IMG/VR virus record: IMGVR_UViG_3300032373_001207
Location: 1-51,874 of that record
Direction: 5' to 3' (one strand)
Origin: a virus
Lineage: Duplodnaviria > Caudoviricetes
DNA: 51,874 nt
Under the pieces are notes generated by a model. That model made no database searches and was not told where the DNA came from. It saw nothing but the letters and a program-made list of their open reading frames with translations. The translations under genes and the position numbers were made by a program. Below, piece by piece: positions 1,858-51,874 of the stretch; position 1 is the first letter of the stretch; every line of letters starts with the position of its first letter.

Positions 1858-3003
1858 TTACTCCTGATCCTTGGGTTGGTTCAGTTCTGCATCACGCGCG
1901 TTGACGCGGTTGATGATGTCTTGATGCTGTTCGGGGAGCGCGGCTTTGAGGTCTTCCAGTTCGGCCTTCTTGTTGGCCATCCATTTATTGAGAGAAGCCT
2001 TGTCCGGCATGGTGTTGATGTTTGAAGATGCGTTATCGCACCACGCTTCCCATCCACCATCAGGCTCATTGGGGGCTTGTGTCGGCGCGTCCTCTTTGGC
2101 GCTCAGGTTCGCGCATGCATCGTTGAAGGCGCGGGCGATGTCCTTGCGTTCATCAGAGCGCGTGCCAAGACCTTCTTGAACATCAACGTTGTGATCCATG
2201 AAGGCGTCGAGCATGTCCCTTGTGGAAAGGGCTTCGACCTTCTTGACGGTTTCCTTCACATAGTTAGGCTTGGAAAACTCGCCCATGGATTCACCGAATT
2301 CGTCGATGAGGGGGAGCAGTTCGACCGTGTCGGTGGTGGGTTGTTGTTCGAAGTCGGTGAGCTGCGGCCGTGGTGGGGCGTCTGCCGGACGAGGGGTGAT
2401 GTCAATCATGCCCTGGGCTTCGTCTTCGTCGTAAATTCCGGAGAAGCCGAAGGCAAGGCGAGCCCCCTGGATCAGGGTCTTGTGGCGCAAGAACCGCTTG
2501 GTATGTGTCTGCCATGGGCCTTTCATGCCTGCCTTGAATGGCTTGCGGTAAACTTCGTCCAGGTACTCGCGGACAACGGTTGGGTGCTCACGGTCCTTGC
2601 GGTAAATCACCACCTCACACCACTTGGGGCATTCCTGTCCGTCTGCGGGGGTCGTGAGCTCATCGGCGTAGCGGAACTCAAAACCGTTCAGCGCTTTGTG
2701 GTCATTGATGATCCGGCTCCAGCCGTCGACGCCAACCACGGGTACGATGCCGTTCTGCTTGTCGGGGAAGGCGAATATTTCCTTGGTGAACGGGTTCAAT
2801 CCGTATTGATCCGCGACGATCAGCAGCGCCATCATTTCCTCATCGGTCGCCGGACGATCTTTGGCCTTGAAGCACGTTGCTTTCAGCGTGCCCATGAGCT
2901 TGCTGGCGTCGACGCTGTATCTGTCCGCGAACTTTTCCAATAGCTTGCGCTTCGGGCGGTCTTGCGTGACCGGCAGGGGCGCGACGTTAGTTTCCTGTGT
3001 CAT
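1858..3003 (-). CDS. bet: Single-strand annealing recombinase, Bet/RecT family
   Basis: LIVADQYGLNPFTKEIFAFPDK.NGIVPVVGVDGWSRIIN...GPWQTHTKRFLRHKTLIQGARLAFGFSGIYDEDEA. Confidence 0.93.
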   Translation of the reverse strand: MTQETNVAPLPVTQDRPKRKLLEKFADRYSVDASKLMGTLKATCFKAKDRPATDEEMMALLIVADQYGLNPFTKEIFAFPDKQNGIVPVVGVDGWSRIINDHKALNGFEFRYADELTTPADGQECPKWCEVVIYRKDREHPTVVREYLDEVYRKPFKAGMKGPWQTHTKRFLRHKTLIQGARLAFGFSGIYDEDEAQGMIDITPRPADAPPRPQLTDFEQQPTTDTVELLPLIDEFGESMGEFSKPNYVKETVKKVEALSTRDMLDAFMDHNVDVQEGLGTRSDERKDIARAFNDACANLSAKEDAPTQAPNEPDGGWEAWCDNASSNINTMPDKASLNKWMANKKAELEDLKAALPEQHQDIINRVNARDAELNQPKDQE

Positions 3004-41736: not shown

Positions 41737-44700
41737 ATGGCCGACCAACCCTTAAAGCTTGTTTCTGATGCGGAGTTCTTTGGTGAGCCCCAGCAACAAG
41801 AGATCACAAAGCCAACAGGGTTTCTCTCCGATGAAGAGTTTTTTGGTGAAAGGGTTAGTCCTAGCGGTCCAGTAGAACAAGACTCCAGCTTTACAGGCAG
41901 CGTGGCGCGTGGCGTCGATCTAGCCCAGGGCATGGGATACAGCTTCATTGAGGCCAGCGGCGAAGCAATGGGCTCTGATACCCTGAAGGATTTCGGCAAA
42001 GAGGGCCGCGAGCGCAACATGGTCGAGATGGGGCAGAACCCCCGTACCCAGAATTTCAAAGACATTGGAAGCTTTGGGGACGCTGTTGATTGGGCCAAAG
42101 AAACGGCTGGCGAACAGGCCGCCATGATGGCCCCGAGCATGGCGGGCGGTATTGGTGGTGCGGCCCTTGGCGCAGCAACCCCAATTCCCGGTGGTGCTGT
42201 AATCGGCGGCATCATCGGTGCCGTTGTGCCGTCATTTATCCTTGGCACTGGCGAAACCCAGATGGCCATTAAAGAAAAAGACCCCAATGCAGAAGCTCCG
42301 GGTATGGCATTTCTTGGTGGTTCGGCTATTGCGGCCCTTGATTCCGTGCTGCCGGGTAAACTTGGCTCGTATGTGGTTAAGGCCTATGGCAGGGAAACGG
42401 CTGAAGCAATTGTCCGGGAAGCCCTCAAAAAGCGTCTGGTCAAAGAAATCCCCAAGGGCATGGCGCTTGAAGGCGTTACCGAAGCCGTACAGGAAGCCAT
42501 CAGCGAGGCCGCTGCGGCGCATGGTACAGGGCAAGAGATTGACTGGAGTGGCCTACAAGACCAGATGATCGAGGCCGGAGCGGCAGGTGCCCTTATGGGC
42601 GGCGGTGCAACCGGTGCAACCGAGGTGGGCACTGCGATTATGCAGGGAAACCAAGCACCCACAGAACAAGACTTAGAAGACCAGATCAACGCTGAACGCG
42701 CCAAGAATATCGACGAGGGCGTGCGCGTTCTCAGCGGTGAAGAGGTGCAGGCTGCTCCGGACGTTTCTCCTCCGTTGAGTACGGCACAGCCCCTGGAGGA
42801 CGGGTTGCCCAACTCCGCGCCTCTAGGGGCAACCATGCCCGAGGGAACTGGCGAGCGCCACGCCCCCGTGAAGGCCGAGGTCCCCGTCGATGTGGACCTT
42901 GCCGCCACCCAAGCCAATACCGCCCCCTCTGACGCCCAGAAGGAAGCCGGGAACTACAAGAAGGGCCACGTAAAGGTACAAGGCCTGGACATCGCCATCG
43001 AAAACCCCAAGGGTTCCGTGCGTTCTGGTTCCGACGAAGACGGGAAAGCTTGGGAAACGGTCATGCGTTCCCATTACGGCTACATCAAAACGGCTGAAGG
43101 TGCGGATGGCGATAAGGTCGACGTGTTCATCAACACCGCCACCAATGGCATTGGCGAAACCGCTTTTGTTGTGGACCAGGTGGTGGGTGGCCAGTTCGAT
43201 GAGCATAAGGTGGTTCTGGGGGCCGAGAGCATTGCGGATGCCAAAGCTATCTACAGTGAGAACTATGCACCTGACTGGGATGGTATTGGTGCCGTCACCC
43301 CCATGCACATGGATGACTTCAAGACCTGGCTGAAGGATGGCAACACCAAGAAGCCCGTCGCATGGACCGCGCCGCTCGATGACCAACTCCCCGCCGATAT
43401 GCAGCCGGTTTCACGTGAAACAAATCAAGAACAAACGCCAGCCTTCAACGTTGATGCGCACTATGGCGCCGCCGTTGCCTTTGCTAAGGCCCAGGGCAAG
43501 AAGTTGACCCCATTGTTCCTGTCCAAGGCCCTTGGTGTGACCGGCAAAGAGGCTCGTGCCTTGTTGGACATCCTGGCCGCCCGTGGCGTCATTCGCAAAT
43601 CTAAGGACAAAGGCACCTATAGCCGCATTCCGGTGCGCAAGGGGCCTGTGGACGTGCTGACGTATATTGCTGACCGTGGTGGCCTGCGTGACGATGAGGG
43701 GCATGACCTGAAGAAGGGACGGGGCGGACAGCGCTTTATCCCCGGTGTTGGTCCCCTAATCCGCTCCAGTGGCCACGGTGTGGACGCTTTGGGCGAAATG
43801 CTCCATGAGGACGGTTACTTCGGCCCCTTGGACACGACGCCGCGCCCGACCGAGGCCCAGGTCCTGGAAGTGCTCGACCGCGCCCTGAGTGGCGAAAAGG
43901 TCTACATCCCCGAAGAAGCCCATCTCCCCGGCGAGACCCGCGCGGCAGAAGAAAGCAAGGCCGGCGAGGCTGAGGTGCGCACCCGCGTGTCCGAGCTTGA
44001 GCTGGACCTGAATGATGGCGAAGTCTCGTATGTTGCGGGCTGGGTTGGTCAGGGCATGTCCCTGGATGACGCCATCGCTGCCACCATCGAGCAGCGCACC
44101 GGGAAGTGGGCAGAAGCCCAAAACCCCACATTTGAAGACGAAGTGATCGACATTCCGTGGGATGAAATCATGCTCACGGAACCTGCTGACTTAGAGGCGG
44201 GAATCCGCTATACTGCCCCCAGGGTTGCGGAGCAGAGCTTCGATGCCCCATTTGCAAAGGTGACGAACGATGAACCGCGAACAGCGCCTCAAGATGGCCA
44301 GCCAGACCAGGACCGCCCTGGAGAAGCACGGGCACAAGATCGACCCGAAGGATCAGGCCGAGGGGCTGAGGCACGCCCGGAACCTGGAGAAACTGGCCGA
44401 GCACCTGCCGGACAAGAAAACCCAGGCTTAGCCACCGCTCAAACCGATCAAGCCCCCGCCGATACCGCGGGGGTTTCTGATTCTGTGTCAAAGACACCAA
44501 AGACGACACATGAACTCAATGCAGCTCGTGACCGCGTCTATCGCCCAGACAAGAAGCTTTATGGGTATTCAAGTGTAGACCTCTCAACCAATTACACCAT
44601 GGAAGAGCTCAACCAATTGAGACTTTCTGTAGAGACTGACCCCGCAAATCAGGAAGACACAGGGCTGTATCTATACACAAAACCAGCACGCTCAAAGTTG

Positions 44701-47700
44701 GACAAAATTGCTTGGGCCGTGCGCTACAAAATGGAAGAAAAGCGTAAGGCCGCTAAAGCTACCACCGAGACCGTCACCAACGTGGCTGGCGCGACCGAGC
44801 AGGGCGTTATCCCCGGTGCTGAGAAGATCAGCGACAAGGAACTGGCCGAGCGCAAGATGGCCGAGAAGAAGAAGTCCGATGTCACGCAGAAGGATGCTGG
44901 TTCGGATGGCGGCCTCTTCGACACCGGCGCGCGCGATCAGGGCGACTTGCTGGATGTCGCAGCCAAACCCGTTGTTTCTCATAAAACGGAAAATATTGAC
45001 GACAAACCCAAGGCCAAGAATCCGAACGGCACCGACTTGCTGGGCGATAAGGCCAAAATCACCGACAAGGGTGTGGAGATGTATGCCGCTGCCATGCCGA
45101 GGGGGGCTGCATACACCCAGTTGGTTGCCGACCAGAACCATTTTTCGAGTGAAGTAGATGACGCACTTGCGGGAAAGCGTAAGGGCTCTCGCGCTTTTCT
45201 TACCGTCGGGGAAACACCCCTGATCCTTAATCGTCTTGGCGTTAAACGCAAAAAACTGATGATGCGGGCCTCAAAGCCGCAGGAGATTTTGGACACCCAC
45301 GACGGCATGACCATCGACCTGATCAAACGGGCGCCGACCCTGATAAGCGATCCGGTTATGGTCATGAAGTCAGGCAGCCGTGGCAATCCCCATGCGTTGG
45401 TTGCCGTGCTGAATGAAGTGGATGCAAACGGTGAATTGCTGGTGGCCGTGGTGACGCCAGCCACTGGGCGGGTGCAGGTGGATACTTTCAGTAGCGCATA
45501 TGGAAAGACCACCAATCCGCAAAGGTTCATTGATGACGCGGTGGCGCAAAAAAGAGTGCGGTATTACAACGAAGAAATGGCGCTTAACCACCCCGGCATC
45601 ACTGGGGTCCAATTCCCCAGGTGGGGGGCGGTTAAGCGCCACATTCCAAATGTACTCTCACACGACGATTTCGTCAAGGCACGCGCGCAAAAGCCCGATG
45701 TTTACAGTGTTCTTGGTGAGTATTCGTGGAAGGATTCTGTGGACCGCAAGAAGCTGGTTGAGCAGATTATTGCCATTCATAAACGCATCGCACCGAAGAC
45801 GGACATCGAAGTCGTTGAACAACTCTTTGGCAATATAGAGGGTCGGGGCCTCGAAGAGGTTGGCGGCGTCTACAGTCCGGGGAAAAACCTTGTTCGTGTT
45901 GCGGTCGATTTTGGCAATGCCGAGGCGCTTGTTCGTCATGAGGACATCCATGCCCTGCGCGATATGGGGATGTTCACCAAAACCGAATGGAACATTTTGT
46001 CGCAAAAGGCCAGAAGGCAGTGGATCGAAGATTACAAAATTGATGTTCGGTACCCTAAGCACTCGAAGGAGAAGGCTGCCGAAGAGGCTATTGGTGATGC
46101 GTTCGCAGATTACATGACCGGAGATGCACGGTTTTCGCCCGTTATTCGCCGTATCTTCGACAAGATCAAACAATTCTTTGAACGCCTGGGGAACCTTCTG
46201 AACGGGCAGGGCTATCAGAGCGTTGAAGACATATTCGACCGCGTTGAGCGCGGTGACGTCGGAAAGCGGCAGGCCAACCATGATACGGATGCAACAAGTT
46301 CAATTGACGACCTGTATAGCGTTGACGAAGACCCTATCTCAGAGCTGGCATCGTCCAAAGACTTCGCCGAGCGCGCGGCAGAGACCCTGCAAACCCCGGA
46401 GCAGAAGCAAGGGGCGCTGAAGACTGCCCTGGATGGGGTGAGGGATTTCGTTACATCACCGGCCATCCCCCATGCCAAGGACTTGAACTGGTTCCAGAAG
46501 GCCATGGTCCACCCCCGCATGATCGCGGAGATGTTCCCAAAATTCACGCCGGTATGGTTAGCGGCCGAGAAGCAGTTCAAGCGCCGGGACACCATCAACG
46601 CCGAACTGACCAGCATCATGGAGCCTTACCACGCCCTGGAGCTCGACAGCAAAGCGCGTGTGCATGCGGTGCTGGAGCTTGGGCGTTTGCAAGGAGAAGT
46701 TATCGACAGCAAAAACGTGGGCCTCACCAACACGTGGGGCGATACGGATATGTCGAAGCTGGGCGAACGGATCAACCTGACCGAAGACGAGTCCAAGGCC
46801 TATCACGCCGTGCGCAAGACCATGGATAGGGTTCTCCAGCTTTACACGAAGCAGGTGCTTAACGAATGGGGATATGACCAGAAGGACAGCCCCAAGACGT
46901 CCGCAGAACTAGAGGCCCTATCCAAGGAGCTTTATGAAAAGGCCAAAGATGCTGAGAGCCATGAAGAGGCTAAGGACCTAAACCGCGAAGGCGACACAGC
47001 TAAGGAAGCCGCCAAGATCATCGGCGAAATTGAGGCCGCAAAGGCAACGGGATATGTGCCATTCAGTCGTTTTGGAGACGTTGGTATAACGGTGCGCGAC
47101 AAGGGTAATTCTGTGGTGCATTTCGAGAAGATCGAAGTGGGCGGAGCCGTTGGCCGTCTGGTCAACCGCAAGAAGGTCCAGGATGTGCGCCGTCGCTTAA
47201 TGGAGCAATACCCTAAATCCAAAGGCTACGCTGTTGGGAACGCGCAACAGATGACCAACGCCGCCGACATGGCAGCGGCAGGCCTCAAGATCGGAGACAT
47301 TGATGCGCTGGCGGATATCGCAGGCATTGAAGATTCAGAGTGGGCCGGAACGCGGGAGAAGCTGAACAAAGCCACCATGAAGGCTGGCTTTCGTAAGCAC
47401 TTCATTGGTTCCAAAAAAACAGCAGGGTACTCCACGGATTTTGAGCGCTCTCTTGCGGATTCAATTACCAGCGTCAGTTCCTATCTTGCGCGCCGCGAAG
47501 TGCGTGAAGAGATGGAGCAGGCGCAGGCGCAGCTCGCTTCACCTCAGAACAAACAAACGAACCTTTATGAGTATGCCAAAACCTATGGAGACTACGTTCA
47601 GTCCCCTGGTGAGAGTTTGCAGTGGTTCCGGAGTTTGAATTTTTTCTATTATCTGTCGGGAAATGTCAGCAGCGCCGTGGTCAACCTGACACAGGTGGGG

Positions 47701-49188
47701 CTGGCGACCGCTCCATACTTGACGCAGTTTACATCGGCTCGGCGCGTTTCTATGGAACTGGCCCGTGCCTATAAGGACGTCGGCAAAATGGCTTGGCGCA
47801 AGCCGAACATGGATGGTGGCGCGATGGAATTCTTCGATCCATCCAAGGCACCGGCAGACGTAAAAGAAGATCTGCAAAGAGCTTGGGATGACGGCACCCT
47901 GGTTCCGTTGGTGACATTGGAGCAAATGGGCGTGGCGCACGGCCGGGAGAAATTCCGTCGCGGCATTGGCAAAGGATCTCAGGCCGCCGTGGAGTTTGCT
48001 GGATCGCTGTTCACCGGTGCAGAACGGGCCAACAGGCTGGTGACCTTCATCGCCGCCCACCGGCTTGCTCGGCAGAAGGGTTTCATGTTCAAGGTGAACG
48101 AGGTGCTGAAGGATAATGGCCTATGGCAGCACCAGGCCAAGGATATGAACCCAGGGAACTTCGCCGAGTGGGCAATCGACGAAACACATTTTGTAATGGG
48201 AAAACGTAACCGGCCGACACTATTTCGCGGTGTCGGTACGGCGGTCTTTCAGTTCAGGGGCTTCTCCGTTCAATACTTGGAGCTGATGTGGCGCATGGCC
48301 AGTCAGAACGGGGCGGAGGGCAAGCGGGCGTTTGCCATGCTCTTGGGTGGGCTGGTCGCGTCCGCTGGCGTGTGGGGGCTGCCGTTTGGAGATGACCTGA
48401 AGGACGTGATTGAGCAGCTTTATGCCTTCGCCACAGATCGAGAAATCGACTTAGAAGCCGAACTGCGCGAAGCGATCTATGACACAAGTGGGTCTGCGCT
48501 CCTGGCCGAGGCCGTTAACCGCGGCCCAATGCGCATGGTGGGTGCCGATATGTCTCATCGCATTGGTATGGGGTCCGTCCTGCCGATGAACACCTTCATG
48601 GGGCTTATGGGGGTCCAAACACGTCAAGGTGGCGAGGTCATGGGGGTTGGCTGGGATATGACGGTCGGGCGCGTTAAGCGGATCGTCGATCATTTGAAGA
48701 ACGATCAACTGGCAATGGCAGGATCAGAGGCCTTGCCGGCCTTCGCTAAAAACCCTGTGCAATCCATCTTGTGGAGCACGGACGGGGTTCGGTCGCGCGG
48801 GACGGGACGGGCGCAAATTCCGGAAAATAAAATCACCGATATGGACGTGGCGCTGAAGTGGTTTGGGTTTACGCCGGTTCATATCACGAGGGAACGCGAA
48901 GTCGAGTGGGCTAAAATCCGCTCCACCAGAGCGGTAACAAACCTACAGGCGCGCTTTTACACGAAGATGGTCCGGTCGATTGTCGAGGGTGATAAAGACG
49001 GCGTGGCGGCGCTCTTTGCTGAAATAAAGGACTACAACGCGGACAAGCCGTTTCATAAGCAGATACGTCTCAGTCGAACATACCTCAATCGACTTGTTCG
49101 CCTAGAAGTGAGTGGATACGAGGGCCGAAAGCTGCCGAGAAAGGCCCGTCCGCATGGGGCAAAGCTTGATCAGGTGTACCCGAATTGA
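41737..49188 (+). CDS. Large polyvalent virion/ejection protein (inorganic pyrophosphatase-like, MuF-C/PBECR-like, HExxH metallopeptidase-like, PLxRFG-like regions)
   Basis: GNYKKGHV...ENPKGSVRSG...HYGYI...GADGDKVDVF; ISDPVMVMKS...SAYGK; VRHEDIHAL; YVPFSRFG. Confidence 0.85.
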   Translation: MADQPLKLVSDAEFFGEPQQQEITKPTGFLSDEEFFGERVSPSGPVEQDSSFTGSVARGVDLAQGMGYSFIEASGEAMGSDTLKDFGKEGRERNMVEMGQNPRTQNFKDIGSFGDAVDWAKETAGEQAAMMAPSMAGGIGGAALGAATPIPGGAVIGGIIGAVVPSFILGTGETQMAIKEKDPNAEAPGMAFLGGSAIAALDSVLPGKLGSYVVKAYGRETAEAIVREALKKRLVKEIPKGMALEGVTEAVQEAISEAAAAHGTGQEIDWSGLQDQMIEAGAAGALMGGGATGATEVGTAIMQGNQAPTEQDLEDQINAERAKNIDEGVRVLSGEEVQAAPDVSPPLSTAQPLEDGLPNSAPLGATMPEGTGERHAPVKAEVPVDVDLAATQANTAPSDAQKEAGNYKKGHVKVQGLDIAIENPKGSVRSGSDEDGKAWETVMRSHYGYIKTAEGADGDKVDVFINTATNGIGETAFVVDQVVGGQFDEHKVVLGAESIADAKAIYSENYAPDWDGIGAVTPMHMDDFKTWLKDGNTKKPVAWTAPLDDQLPADMQPVSRETNQEQTPAFNVDAHYGAAVAFAKAQGKKLTPLFLSKALGVTGKEARALLDILAARGVIRKSKDKGTYSRIPVRKGPVDVLTYIADRGGLRDDEGHDLKKGRGGQRFIPGVGPLIRSSGHGVDALGEMLHEDGYFGPLDTTPRPTEAQVLEVLDRALSGEKVYIPEEAHLPGETRAAEESKAGEAEVRTRVSELELDLNDGEVSYVAGWVGQGMSLDDAIAATIEQRTGKWAEAQNPTFEDEVIDIPWDEIMLTEPADLEAGIRYTAPRVAEQSFDAPFAKVTNDEPRTAPQDGQPDQDRPGEARAQDRPEGSGRGAEARPEPGETGRAPAGQENPGLATAQTDQAPADTAGVSDSVSKTPKTTHELNAARDRVYRPDKKLYGYSSVDLSTNYTMEELNQLRLSVETDPANQEDTGLYLYTKPARSKLDKIAWAVRYKMEEKRKAAKATTETVTNVAGATEQGVIPGAEKISDKELAERKMAEKKKSDVTQKDAGSDGGLFDTGARDQGDLLDVAAKPVVSHKTENIDDKPKAKNPNGTDLLGDKAKITDKGVEMYAAAMPRGAAYTQLVADQNHFSSEVDDALAGKRKGSRAFLTVGETPLILNRLGVKRKKLMMRASKPQEILDTHDGMTIDLIKRAPTLISDPVMVMKSGSRGNPHALVAVLNEVDANGELLVAVVTPATGRVQVDTFSSAYGKTTNPQRFIDDAVAQKRVRYYNEEMALNHPGITGVQFPRWGAVKRHIPNVLSHDDFVKARAQKPDVYSVLGEYSWKDSVDRKKLVEQIIAIHKRIAPKTDIEVVEQLFGNIEGRGLEEVGGVYSPGKNLVRVAVDFGNAEALVRHEDIHALRDMGMFTKTEWNILSQKARRQWIEDYKIDVRYPKHSKEKAAEEAIGDAFADYMTGDARFSPVIRRIFDKIKQFFERLGNLLNGQGYQSVEDIFDRVERGDVGKRQANHDTDATSSIDDLYSVDEDPISELASSKDFAERAAETLQTPEQKQGALKTALDGVRDFVTSPAIPHAKDLNWFQKAMVHPRMIAEMFPKFTPVWLAAEKQFKRRDTINAELTSIMEPYHALELDSKARVHAVLELGRLQGEVIDSKNVGLTNTWGDTDMSKLGERINLTEDESKAYHAVRKTMDRVLQLYTKQVLNEWGYDQKDSPKTSAELEALSKELYEKAKDAESHEEAKDLNREGDTAKEAAKIIGEIEAAKATGYVPFSRFGDVGITVRDKGNSVVHFEKIEVGGAVGRLVNRKKVQDVRRRLMEQYPKSKGYAVGNAQQMTNAADMAAAGLKIGDIDALADIAGIEDSEWAGTREKLNKATMKAGFRKHFIGSKKTAGYSTDFERSLADSITSVSSYLARREVREEMEQAQAQLASPQNKQTNLYEYAKTYGDYVQSPGESLQWFRSLNFFYYLSGNVSSAVVNLTQVGLATAPYLTQFTSARRVSMELARAYKDVGKMAWRKPNMDGGAMEFFDPSKAPADVKEDLQRAWDDGTLVPLVTLEQMGVAHGREKFRRGIGKGSQAAVEFAGSLFTGAERANRLVTFIAAHRLARQKGFMFKVNEVLKDNGLWQHQAKDMNPGNFAEWAIDETHFVMGKRNRPTLFRGVGTAVFQFRGFSVQYLELMWRMASQNGAEGKRAFAMLLGGLVASAGVWGLPFGDDLKDVIEQLYAFATDREIDLEAELREAIYDTSGSALLAEAVNRGPMRMVGADMSHRIGMGSVLPMNTFMGLMGVQTRQGGEVMGVGWDMTVGRVKRIVDHLKNDQLAMAGSEALPAFAKNPVQSILWSTDGVRSRGTGRAQIPENKITDMDVALKWFGFTPVHITREREVEWAKIRSTRAVTNLQARFYTKMVRSIVEGDKDGVAALFAEIKDYNADKPFHKQIRLSRTYLNRLVRLEVSGYEGRKLPRKARPHGAKLDQVYPN
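44186..44214 (+). promoter_or_regulatory. Internal sigma70-type promoter for the nested ORF
   Basis: CTGACT-17-TATACT. Confidence 0.55.
44270..44431 (+). CDS. Nested 53-aa ORF in the +1 frame of the giant gene (not in ORF track)
   Basis: AAGGTG RBS; MNREQRLKMASQTRTALEKHGHKIDPKDQAEGLRHARNLEKLAEHLPDKKTQA; promoter upstream and hairpin downstream. Confidence 0.6.
   Translation: MNREQRLKMASQTRTALEKHGHKIDPKDQAEGLRHARNLEKLAEHLPDKKTQA
44450..44478 (+). terminator. Terminator-like hairpin after the nested ORF
   Basis: AAGCCCCCGC-7nt-GCGGGGGTTT; weak U tract. Confidence 0.5.
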
Positions 49189-49245
49189 TGGATTGCCGAT
49201 TAATCGCTAAGGTAGCGTCGTGAGATTGTTGGCGCGGGGGGTAAA

Positions 49246-49602
49246 ATGATGAATTGCAGATCAATAGGGGCCGTAGTTTTGGTGGTGATGGTTTTGTTTC
49301 CAGCAACCGCAAGCACTACTGAGTGGGACTATGGGAGCACAGGAAGGCTGGCTCAGGCATGCACTCGTTCCAATGATGTTTGGGCTGGATATTGCAGAGG
49401 TATGATAATTGGCGTTGCATCAATTATGTCAGCCAATGCTCAAGTTGAGCCTCGTCCGCCATATTTTGCGTGCGTTGGAAATGACGATGTATCAGAGATA
49501 ATAAATAAGTTTGTTTCGTGGTCTAAGGATGGGCAGAAAGATTTATCGGAAGACGCACCGATAGGGCTTATTCGGTTCCTCAGGGCCACGTATCCTTGTT
49601 AA
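49246..49602 (+). CDS. Rap1a/Tai-like secreted immunity protein
   Basis: Signal peptide; TGRLAQAC...YCRGMIIGV...C...LRATYPC cysteine pattern. Confidence 0.78.
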   Translation: MMNCRSIGAVVLVVMVLFPATASTTEWDYGSTGRLAQACTRSNDVWAGYCRGMIIGVASIMSANAQVEPRPPYFACVGNDDVSEIINKFVSWSKDGQKDLSEDAPIGLIRFLRATYPC

Positions 49603-49604
49603 TT

Positions 49605-49745
49605 TTATTTACTTTTTTCAACGTGTTGGACCAAGATGCGTTCGATGTAATTGGCTAGCGTGCGGCCATCTTTCTCCGCCAACTGTTCAAGCTTTTCTTT
49701 GAGTTCCGGTTCAACTCGGATTCCAATTGCCGCAGATCGGGCCAT
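49605..49745 (-). CDS. 46-aa ribbon-helix-helix (Arc/CopG-like) regulator (not in ORF track)
   Basis: GGAG RBS; MARSAAIGIRVEPELKEKLEQLAEKDGRTLANYIERILVQHVEKSK. Confidence 0.88.
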   Translation of the reverse strand: MARSAAIGIRVEPELKEKLEQLAEKDGRTLANYIERILVQHVEKSK

Positions 49746-49762
49746 GTCTTCACTCCGTTAAC

Positions 49763-49828
49763 ATTGTTTGCAGATAGTTGTTGACAACAAACAACAACAG
49801 CATCACTCTATACACATCTGCAAACAAT
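49763..49828 (+). promoter_or_regulatory. Promoter of the RAMP operon flanked by a perfect 13-bp inverted repeat
   Basis: TTGACA (49781)-17-CACTCT; ATTGTTTGCAGAT 49763-49775 and ATCTGCAAACAAT 49816-49828. Confidence 0.7.
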
Positions 49829-49848
49829 TGCAACACGGAGCAATCGAA

Positions 49849-50046
49849 ATGCGCACCTATAAAAGTACGGACTCAAACATCGTCCAGGTGGATTTCAGAG
49901 AGAAGCCCAAAGCCTGGAATCTTCGGGACGAAGTCAGAAAGCGCGGCATACCTAGAGGGCAGGGCGTTAACCGTCCTGACGTGGTTACCTCAATCCTCAG
50001 GGGTGTGAACGAAAACGCACTTGTCCGTGGGGTGACCCATGGCTAA
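49849..50046 (+). CDS. Small protein, paralogue of 41078..41284
   Basis: GGAG RBS before MRTYKS; overlaps the RAMP start by 8 nt. Confidence 0.75.
   Translation: MRTYKSTDSNIVQVDFREKPKAWNLRDEVRKRGIPRGQGVNRPDVVTSILRGVNENALVRGVTHG
49876..49996 (+). repeat. 121-bp direct repeat, copy 2
   Basis: Matches 41114-41234. Confidence 0.92.
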
Positions 50047-50635
50047 GGCCGCAACGGAAAAGGTCGACCTACCAGCCCTGAACATCCAGGGCTTTGAATT
50101 GACGCTGGTCGGGGATAGCCCCCTGATTTGCCATGCTTGGTCGAAGAAGGCCAAAGAGATGATGCTGGCGAAGCAGATGAAAAAACCCGCAACCGCAAAG
50201 GTGGCGAAGGACCCGGAGCAGGATTACCAAGACAGCCTCTATCCGCACCCTGAGGGCGGCTACGGTTTTCCCGCAGTGGCGTTTAAATCAGCAGCAGTCA
50301 GTGCCTGTCGGGCGCTCGATAAAAGCATCACCATGGTCCAGGCGCGCGGCGCGTTCCACGTTATAGGTGAGTTGGTGAAAATCGACGGCGATCCGCGGCC
50401 CCGCGAAGATATGGTGCGGATTGGCATGGGCACCGCAGATATCAGGTTCCGGGGAGAGTTTCCAGTTTGGAATACCACATTCTTGGTGCGCTACAACGCT
50501 AACGTTCTAACGGCCGAGCAAATTATAAATCTGTTCAACCACGCCGGATTCCACGTCGGCGTGGGCGAGAACAGGCCCGAAAAGTCCGGCAACGGCTTTG
50601 GCATGTTCCACGTCGCTATTGAAGGGGAGGCGTGA
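50039..50635 (+). CDS. Stand-alone RAMP/Cas7-like RNA-binding protein
   Basis: LTLVGDSPLICH (like Csm3 beta1/SPLHIG), GFPAVAFKSAAVSA (like IPGSSLKGALRS), C-terminal Gly-rich loop GVGENRPEKSGNGFGMF. Confidence 0.75.
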   Translation: MAKAATEKVDLPALNIQGFELTLVGDSPLICHAWSKKAKEMMLAKQMKKPATAKVAKDPEQDYQDSLYPHPEGGYGFPAVAFKSAAVSACRALDKSITMVQARGAFHVIGELVKIDGDPRPREDMVRIGMGTADIRFRGEFPVWNTTFLVRYNANVLTAEQIINLFNHAGFHVGVGENRPEKSGNGFGMFHVAIEGEA

Positions 50636-51123
50636 TCATGACGGATAAAATCTATTCCTGGAAAGATGGCGCCATCATCAAGGCAGATGCCCAGAAGGTT
50701 GGCGAACGCCTTGAGTGGCTGGAAAAACGCCACAATGGGCTGTTATCCGCAGAAGCGGTATTAAACGACGCCAAGAAAAAAACGTCACCCTTGAACAAAG
50801 CGTTCGAGTGGGATGACACGGAAGCCGCACAGCAATATCGCTTGGAGCAGGCGCGGGCCTTGATGCGGATGATCACGGTGGAAATCCGACAGGTTAAGAC
50901 CAAGACACATAAGCCGGTCAGGGCCTACGTGAATGTACGGCGTGCAGACGACAAGGGATACGCGCCGGTCGCTCAAGTCATGAATGACACCGAATTGCGG
51001 GAGCAAGTCCTGCAGCGGGCATGGCGTGAACTGCAAAACTGGCGGGACCGCTACCGCGAATACGAAGAACTGATTGAGATATTCACCGCCATCGAGCAAA
51101 CGGCGGACAAGATCAGCGCTTAA
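50632..51123 (+). CDS. Partner protein of the RAMP gene, function unknown
   Basis: GTGA overlap with RAMP stop; SPLNKAFEWDDTEAAQQYRLEQAR. Confidence 0.8.
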   Translation: MIMTDKIYSWKDGAIIKADAQKVGERLEWLEKRHNGLLSAEAVLNDAKKKTSPLNKAFEWDDTEAAQQYRLEQARALMRMITVEIRQVKTKTHKPVRAYVNVRRADDKGYAPVAQVMNDTELREQVLQRAWRELQNWRDRYREYEELIEIFTAIEQTADKISA

Positions 51124-51136
51124 GGATTGGGTTACG

Positions 51137-51278
51137 CCGAGAGTTCCTTACAACCTCGGGGCCGGAAACGGCAGCAAGGCAGGCGAGGCAAGGTGAGGTA
51201 TGGCGAGGTCTGTCGAGGAGCGGCGAGGCCTGGCAAGTCGAGGCTAACAGGGGCAGTTCTTCGGAGCTGCCCTTTTTT
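51137..51278 (+). ncRNA. Putative guide RNA with 12 GGY-NN pentamers, two 5' hairpins and a 3' terminator
   Basis: From 51182: GGCGA GGCAA GGTGA GGTAT GGCGA GGTCT GTCGA GGAGC GGCGA GGCCT GGCAA GTCGA GGC; hairpins 51137-51159 and GCCG-GAAA-CGGC 51161-51172; 5' end uncertain. Confidence 0.75.
51249..51278 (+). terminator. Intrinsic terminator
   Basis: AGGGGCAGTTC-TTCG-GAGCTGCCCTT-TTTT. Confidence 0.88.
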
Positions 51279-51298
51279 ATTGAAGATGGAGCGGCAAG

Positions 51299-51874
51299 AT
51301 GAAGGTTTATGACCTGATTGAAGATATCGTACGTCGGGAAGGTGGTTTCTCCGCTGACCCGAAAGACCGCGCGCATTATGGCAAAGCGAAAGATCATCAC
51401 AAATGGGATTGCTATTGCACCAACATGGGCATCACCCAGGCTACGCTTTCCGACTATTTCGGCCGTCAAGCCACGCAAGACGAGGTCCGCAGCCTGGAAC
51501 CGGCTCTGGCGCATGAGATTTACGAGAGCCGATATGTGACGGGTCCACGCTTTCACACCATGCCGGATATGATTGTTGAGGCGCTCGTCGACGGCGGAGT
51601 CCATTCAGGGCCACGTCGGTCGGCCCGGTGGCTCCAGGAAGTCCTCAACATGGCCGGATATGGCCTTCTATCTACAGATGGGGCCATTGGCCCGTCCACG
51701 CGCTCAGCAGCCACTACAGCGGCGGAAGAGATGGGTCCGTGGTTGGTGAACGCGCTTATTGAGCAAAGGAGACAGTTTTTGCTGGCATTGATCGCCGCAG
51801 ACCCCACGCAGCAGCGCTTTCACGATGGGTGGATGGCGCGGCTTAATAGTTTGGAAGTGGAGACGGACACATGA
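51299..51874 (+). CDS. Endolysin, glycoside hydrolase family 108 with peptidoglycan-binding domain
   Basis: REGGF..DPKD; TNMGITQATL; DGGVHSG; DGAIGPST; RFHDGWMAR. Confidence 0.92.
   Translation: MKVYDLIEDIVRREGGFSADPKDRAHYGKAKDHHKWDCYCTNMGITQATLSDYFGRQATQDEVRSLEPALAHEIYESRYVTGPRFHTMPDMIVEALVDGGVHSGPRRSARWLQEVLNMAGYGLLSTDGAIGPSTRSAATTAAEEMGPWLVNALIEQRRQFLLALIAADPTQQRFHDGWMARLNSLEVETDT

Follow-up and report, generated by a model that had tools for sequence, protein, structure and literature searches.

A Prophage VIPR Locus with a Single Guide, a Structured 5′ Leader, and a Candidate Target in the Giant Virion-Protein Gene of a Sibling Provirus

Introduction

VIPR systems, published in 2026 preprints, pair a minimal RAMP protein, Vipr, with guide RNAs built from GGY-NN pentamers. 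The target rule is to read two bases and skip one (10.64898/2026.04.26.720920). According to the available text of the structural study of Vipr from Escherichia phage SUSP1, guide contacts in the protein include H17, R138, D177, and R179, and Trp178 stacks on G2 (10.64898/2026.04.26.720927). Here we examine a locus in the viral record IMGVR_UViG_3300032373_001207, a provirus that is 87% complete; the whole stretch analyzed, 51,874 nucleotides, is called the window below. A sequence-only reading of this DNA had pointed to a resemblance to VIPR-type systems, and we find that the locus is almost certainly a member of that published system, with a guide whose best matching site in a sibling provirus lies in a giant virion-protein gene.

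Results

The window carries replication, terminase, portal, and head genes, and toward its end the order is a 2483-aa gene, a Rap1a-like gene, a divergent ribbon-helix-helix gene, a 65-aa ORF, a 198-aa gene, a 163-aa gene, a noncoding stretch, and an endolysin gene. The elements of the cassette are as follows.

49605..49745, minus strand: ribbon-helix-helix (Arc/CopG-like) repressor gene, divergent; Pfam RHH_1 above the cut-off, with Arc-like PHROGs
49763..49828, no strand assigned: putative control region; a 13-base perfect inverted repeat found by eye (49763-49775 and 49816-49828) flanks a TTGACA at 49781
49849..50046, plus strand: 65-aa ORF whose stop overlaps the vipr start; alternatively listed as 49768-50046 from an upstream TTG
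50039..50635, plus strand: vipr, encoding a predicted minimal RAMP (Cas7/Csm3-like) guide-binding protein of 198 aa, by homology and predicted fold
50632..51123, plus strand: vap, accessory gene of the phrog_15946 family, 163 aa from GTG or 161 aa from the ATG at 50638
51131..51181, plus strand: 5′ leader of the guide, 51 bases, with two hairpins (stems 51137-51159 and 51161-51172)
51182..51246, plus strand: vrRNA guide tract of 13 GGY-NN pentamers
51249..51278, plus strand: intrinsic terminator, a stem at 51249-51274 followed by a T run (fold z = -4.5)

The vipr and vap ORFs share 4 bases, in agreement with the earlier description of vap as a coupled partner gene. The 65-aa ORF, for which Pfam and PHROG family searches gave no convincing family, is likely the first gene of the cassette operon. 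A 97-base piece of this ORF (49875-49971), with 10 differences, also occurs in an 8.7-kb contig of sequencing run X1 at a depth of 24. The ribbon-helix-helix repressor likely regulates the cassette; a promoter search did not pick up the TTGACA region. The nearest relative of the window is the 57-kb provirus G001 (locus L001), whose Vipr is 83% identical and whose cassette follows the same giant gene with another guide. The divergent repressors of the two differ in kind, being of the ribbon-helix-helix type in the window (49605-49850) and a helix-turn-helix-like ORF, labeled by eye, in the sibling (L001, 2400-3005), a sign that the control module has been swapped. A Rap1a immunity-like gene (49246-49602), which scores just below the Pfam cut-off, separates the giant gene from the cassette.

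The sequence-only reading had noted neither cas genes nor an array, and this holds in the record. A family search for Cas1, the only Cas family searched as such, found none in the 87% complete provirus; no repeat-spacer array is present among the 22 tandem-repeat rows; and no cas family appears among the best five PHROG matches listed per ORF (33 of the 60 ORFs of at least 130 aa, positions 1-42000).

The structure model of the 198-aa protein (pLDDT 92.6) bears out the RAMP fold and the three hallmarks proposed from the letters: SPL follows strand 1 (residues E16-25), PAVAFKSA opens the helix at 79-91, and a Gly-rich loop spans 170-188 of the model. The top fold matches, at TM scores of about 0.4-0.56, are chains of CRISPR RAMP complexes (Csm, Cmr, and type VII); the fold library compared is older than the solved Vipr entry. 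A profile of 84 homologues searched against the PDB gave SUSP1 Vipr as the sole significant match (E = 1.9e-10, all others E at least 0.8), and a single-sequence search reached it only at E = 0.053. Pairwise hhalign of the window and SUSP1 Vipr proteins gives 97.6%, and both fall in phrog_4652. The family is large, with 2894 of 2997 candidates scored. The SUSP1 residues H17, K33, R138, D177, and R179 align to H32, K48, R138, E177, and R179 in the window protein; K82 aligns to an Ala in a poorly aligned part and has no clear counterpart. Position 178 is Asn, a residue found there in 5 of 120 homologues, with Trp in 112. The missing counterpart of K82 and the absence of Trp178 count against our main reading, the latter being a naturally occurring Trp-to-Asn substitution at a residue that grips the guide.

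GGY-NN tracts lie beside vipr, on the vipr strand, in 47 of 49 viral loci, a set that includes several duplicates; the two loci without a standard tract are one incomplete locus and one with a variant tract. Most Vipr relatives have abutting tracts with a one-base overlap. At one vipr locus (L030, 3590-4400) the tract apparently consists of GTT/GTC/GCT units rather than GGY. In two others (L005, 4105-4264; L012, 1607-1832) the diversity of the NN pairs is very low, mostly AA, AT, GG, and GC, and these may possibly be expanded or nontargeting guides.

The vap family is present in 46 of the 49 vipr loci. The protein has a weakly winged-helix-like N-terminal part followed by a helical hairpin, and its whole-domain fold likenesses, to winged-helix ArsR and MecI, are all weak. 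Sequence searches found no solved relative and only unnamed clusters, the fold search assigned none, and no nuclease family or fold was matched. The family conserves an acidic motif, FEWD, and a number of its Arg residues are invariant. Comparison with SUSP1 vap1 gives an hhalign probability of 0.1%, and the two sit in separate PHROGs, so we regard them as not homologous.

The pentamer tract is real. It scores 20, against 8 for the next best tract in the window and 12 for the best of 100 windows simulated with an order-3 Markov model, and comprises 10 GGY, 2 GTC, and 1 GGA units. The earlier count of 12 units reading about 36 bp requires correction to 13 units with a 38-base footprint. Of the two flanks described as hairpins, the 3′ terminator, which begins at most 3 bases after the tract, stands out by folding energy (z = -4.5); the upstream hairpins do not (z = -0.17) and are supported by conservation. 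Compared with the sibling guide, 12 of the 13 NN pairs differ and the spacing is kept.

The leader preceding the tract is almost identical in the window and G001, and ends in a GGCA boundary like that at the joints of staggered VIPR arrays. Pattern scans returned true copies in 10 of 42, 11 of 24, 14 of 38, and 3 of 10 matches; the rest, which lacked a tract, were set aside as chance. This gave 22 distinct leaders including that of the window, each preceding a tract. Fourteen of the other 21 follow vipr and vap, beginning 7-10 bases past the vap stop, five have no vipr upstream, and two are too close to a contig end. Excluding L169, whose second hairpin is weak, pairing is found in 95.7% of cells across 21 of the 22. 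Thirteen of these 21 have C-G as the first pair and eight have G-C, a compensatory change, and the second hairpin also covaries; other pairs of the first stem are mostly invariant, partly because the search patterns fixed them. Loop lengths differ by 1-4 bases between loci. Pairing of the 5′ GCC of the leader with a downstream GGC was ruled out, as the position covaries inside the first hairpin.

The fixed site after the stop codon, together with invariant unpaired bases, suggests a processing or protective role for the leader, and a ribozyme is possible. The hammerhead ribozyme core contains CUGA, and this core is absent from the invariant leader columns. By eye, the leader does not fit the consensus cores of HDV-like, twister, pistol, and hatchet ribozymes, and divergent members could escape such a comparison. 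Rfam returned nothing over the leader in 8 loci and no hammerhead in 49150-51400 at E values up to 10, where there were just two unrelated weak matches. Two of the 43 viral vipr loci searched (L001 and L021) have the leader, which is a subclade trait. A leader model had no match in the Gordonia locus or over the initial 46 kb of SUSP1, and elsewhere gave only weak matches (E 0.02-0.6). One leader-like element with an A-T first pair (L137, 4475-4546, minus strand; 21.6 bits) lies without a tract on a cellular-looking contig.

Matching the guides of the window and its sibling to each other's sequence points to the region that encodes the C-terminal part of the giant protein, in both directions.

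41737..49188, plus strand: giant polyvalent protein gene, 2483 aa, with InPase and MuF-C domains, at the end of the virion module
47629..47666, minus strand: site matched by the G001 guide, 21/26 here and 19/26 in G001's own gene
48436..48473, plus strand: the window's counterpart of the site that its guide matches in G001, 19/26 here and 21/26 in G001

Against the whole 57 kb of G001, the window guide scores at best 21/26 with a one-base skip, and skips of 0, 2, and 3 give at most 18; units 1-7 match perfectly at this site, which is homologous to its own 19/26 site. The G001 guide likewise scores at best 21/26 in the window, where other skips give 16. Shuffling the units reproduced a score of 21 in 10 of 2000 cases for the window guide against G001, and 1 of 1000 shuffles was as good for the G001 guide against the window; in a scope narrowed post hoc to the final 2.1 kb of the giant gene, none of 3000 reached 21 for either guide. 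The skipped bases are third codon (wobble) positions at both sites. These tests agree with the VIPR preprints, as does the gapped code, with each unit covering three target bases, proposed in the sequence-only reading. That reading also assigned one subunit to each GGY, which does not hold in published structures, where two neighboring subunits hold each GGY. The self matches are 19/26 for each guide, which for the window guide is the best one-skip match in its own window and lies within chance (230 of 1000 shuffles). The target claim comes from two guides, and 21/26, or 81%, is barely above the 80% cut-off of the preprint and exceeds the self match by just 2. A possible target in the repressor gene, at 49730, was set aside (18/26, within chance).

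The search for better targets extended beyond the sibling. Single-protein search found no relatives of the giant gene; an alignment search recovered 6 loci, of which 2 are the same sibling sequence, and none of 74 homologous proteins can exceed 22/26 at the site of the window guide. A perfect target for units 1-12 had no exact match in metagenome or genome collections. An exact search of viral contigs with units 3-11 gave 2 matches in unrelated genes, at 21/26 and 23/26. The latter, in a coiled-coil gene (L051), was selected by requiring 18 bases across the viral collection, for which we estimate about one such 23/26 match by chance, and both are probably chance.

The two phages also occur in one sample. 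In sequencing run X1, from which the window may derive, the window phage has a depth of about 21, whereas a contig bearing the leader variants of G001 has a depth of 227; the guide of G001 is seen there as a loose end at 51184. The contigs break at the leader because it is common to both siblings, and the contigs on either side of the break have depths of 21.2 and 20.6, an equality that speaks against the guide having been swapped. The run further contains a third copy of the giant-gene region (window 47872-48053), more divergent and at a depth of 5.5.

When 89 guides of other loci were compared with the window and G001, the median score was 68%; two reached 80% on the window and one on G001. 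All three guides at or above 80% come from loci without vipr, and all match vipr genes.

50405..50436, plus strand: site within vipr, at the conserved thumb motif, to which orphan guides match, 20/22 for that of L111 and 23/28, over a longer span, for that of L114

For each of the two related guides on the window thumb motif, none of 500 shuffles was as good, and the vipr gene of G001 is matched 18/22 by a leader-bearing orphan guide of the same set. These guides, from L111 and L114 (leader 2501-2532, minus strand, in both) and from L100 (2501-2532), bear the leader and have no vipr within 2.5 kb upstream. Their matches to vipr are in codon register. This matching of vipr genes echoes the orphan guides described in a further preprint (10.64898/2026.10.15.759431) and supports the one-skip code for the Vipr clade of the window.

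Discussion

Taken together, the data are consistent with a mechanism in which Vipr, by analogy with SUSP1, would coat the single 13-unit guide RNA, and the complex would bind the gene for the giant virion protein in sibling phages with two bases read and one skipped, blocking its transcription in the sibling. Filament formation, an R-loop triplex, and silencing without cutting are carried over from the SUSP1 work, and silencing instead of cutting, as the sequence-only reading also proposed, is what we infer for this locus. A match of 21/26 would suffice for targeting and the 19/26 self match would not. For polyvalent proteins of this kind, packaging in the virion and injection have been predicted (PMC5512222, in the portion available), so silencing could plausibly yield defective rival particles, with loss of the giant protein spoiling them. 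The divergent repressor would time expression of the cassette, and the 5′ leader would free or protect the guide, which is made as the terminal part of the operon transcript. We consider this full mechanism, with the sibling giant gene as the working target, reasonably probable. The reciprocal matches suggest mutual RNA-guided warfare between close kin, and the role in phage-phage competition assigned earlier agrees, on sequence evidence, with them and with the VIPR preprints. A bolder version, in which siblings silence each other's virion-injected giant protein with guides tuned to miss self by two bases, and in which the leader is an uncatalogued RNA, self-cleaving or nuclease-stopping, that excises the guide and gives orphan guides access to the same Vipr complexes, is speculative and in our view rather improbable.

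The alternative that deserves the most attention is that this is a working VIPR whose true target is unsampled, either an unrelated virus or a third relative carrying a closer copy of the giant gene; the match to the sibling would then reflect shared ancestry of the site or an old, escaped target. The five mismatches to the sibling compare poorly with the 89% average that the available text of 10.64898/2026.10.15.759431 gives for natural SUSP1 targets, a further divergent giant-gene copy is present in run X1, and the coiled-coil gene of L051 scores higher. The match is nevertheless reciprocal and perfect over units 1-7, both phages occur in one run, and no better homologue was found among the 74 proteins and 6 loci, and we hold this alternative to be unlikely. 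We think it very unlikely that the guide damps the phage's own late gene in the prophage state through the 19/26 site. That site is the best one-skip match in the window and in frame, and G001 has a self match of the same score; yet the score is within chance, both guides match the other phage better, and the VIPR preprints report no self match of 80% or more and lower self scores.

Little credence attaches, in the same way, to a partner that is a nuclease or other enzyme and a system that destroys its target. The FEWD motif, the invariant Arg residues, and the enzyme partners of some VIPR types would fit such a reading, and against it are the lack of a nuclease family or fold match for vap, its weak winged-helix likenesses, and the description of nuclease-bearing VIPR types as host defense-island systems, where the window is a prophage. 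That the tract is a small coding ORF, low-complexity DNA arisen by chance, or an assembly misjoin is highly improbable. One frame of 61 aa is open through leader and tract in both siblings, but this frame crosses the terminator, the tract scores far above the simulations, variation has a period of 5, and the leader loops vary in length. A misjoin is suggested by the break of the contigs at the shared leader and opposed by the similar depths of its flanks, far from the 227 of the sibling. The sibling giant gene as the working target, then, remains our preferred reading. It provides a natural test pair, two related proviruses in one sample that score 21/26 on each other and 19/26 on self, so that the self-versus-rival threshold and the direction of the arms race become testable by a reporter assay. 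The leader, in turn, may explain single-guide maturation in a large Vipr clade without a type II tail.

Comparison with Known Systems

Class 1 CRISPR systems with a Cas7/Csm3 backbone have the RAMP fold in common with this locus; they possess an array, Cas1, and contiguous pairing, in contrast to the gapped pairing here and the absence of array and Cas1. In the hammerhead-interspersed VIPR array, a hammerhead lies beside the guide, whereas Rfam found none at the window. The two-way match of VIPR siblings to a virion gene, together with the leader, does not appear in the available text of 10.64898/2026.04.26.720920, 10.64898/2026.04.26.720927, and 10.64898/2026.10.15.759431; in the main text of the first, the words "virion" and "leader" each occur 0 times.

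VIPR type II, known from Escherichia phage SUSP1 and a Pseudomonas fulva prophage (PDB 36pp), is alike in the Vipr family and the two-gene locus. Its 9-16 GGY-NN units, wobble-aligned one-base-skip code, and rival-phage targets (10.64898/2026.04.26.720920) also resemble the window, where targets are assigned by computation. The window differs in having one guide rather than four, a partner that is not vap1, Asn in place of Trp178, and, instead of a 3′ pseudoknot tail, a terminator within 3 bases of the tract and a structured 5′ leader. Because the partner is unrelated to SUSP1 vap1, the locus, judged from its sequence, is VIPR but not type II. The solo vrRNAs of 10.64898/2026.10.15.759431, in the part of that text available, are likewise orphan guides on vipr with self scores below rival scores, as seen here; the targets named there are satellites, vipr, vrRNAs, and REP repeats, and the window differs in matching a virion-protein gene. 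Among VIPR loci with staggered arrays or a single vrRNA, most relatives of the window Vipr have staggered arrays; the leader, found in just the 2 of 43 loci noted above, is present in the window, which keeps the boundary motif of those arrays before its one guide.
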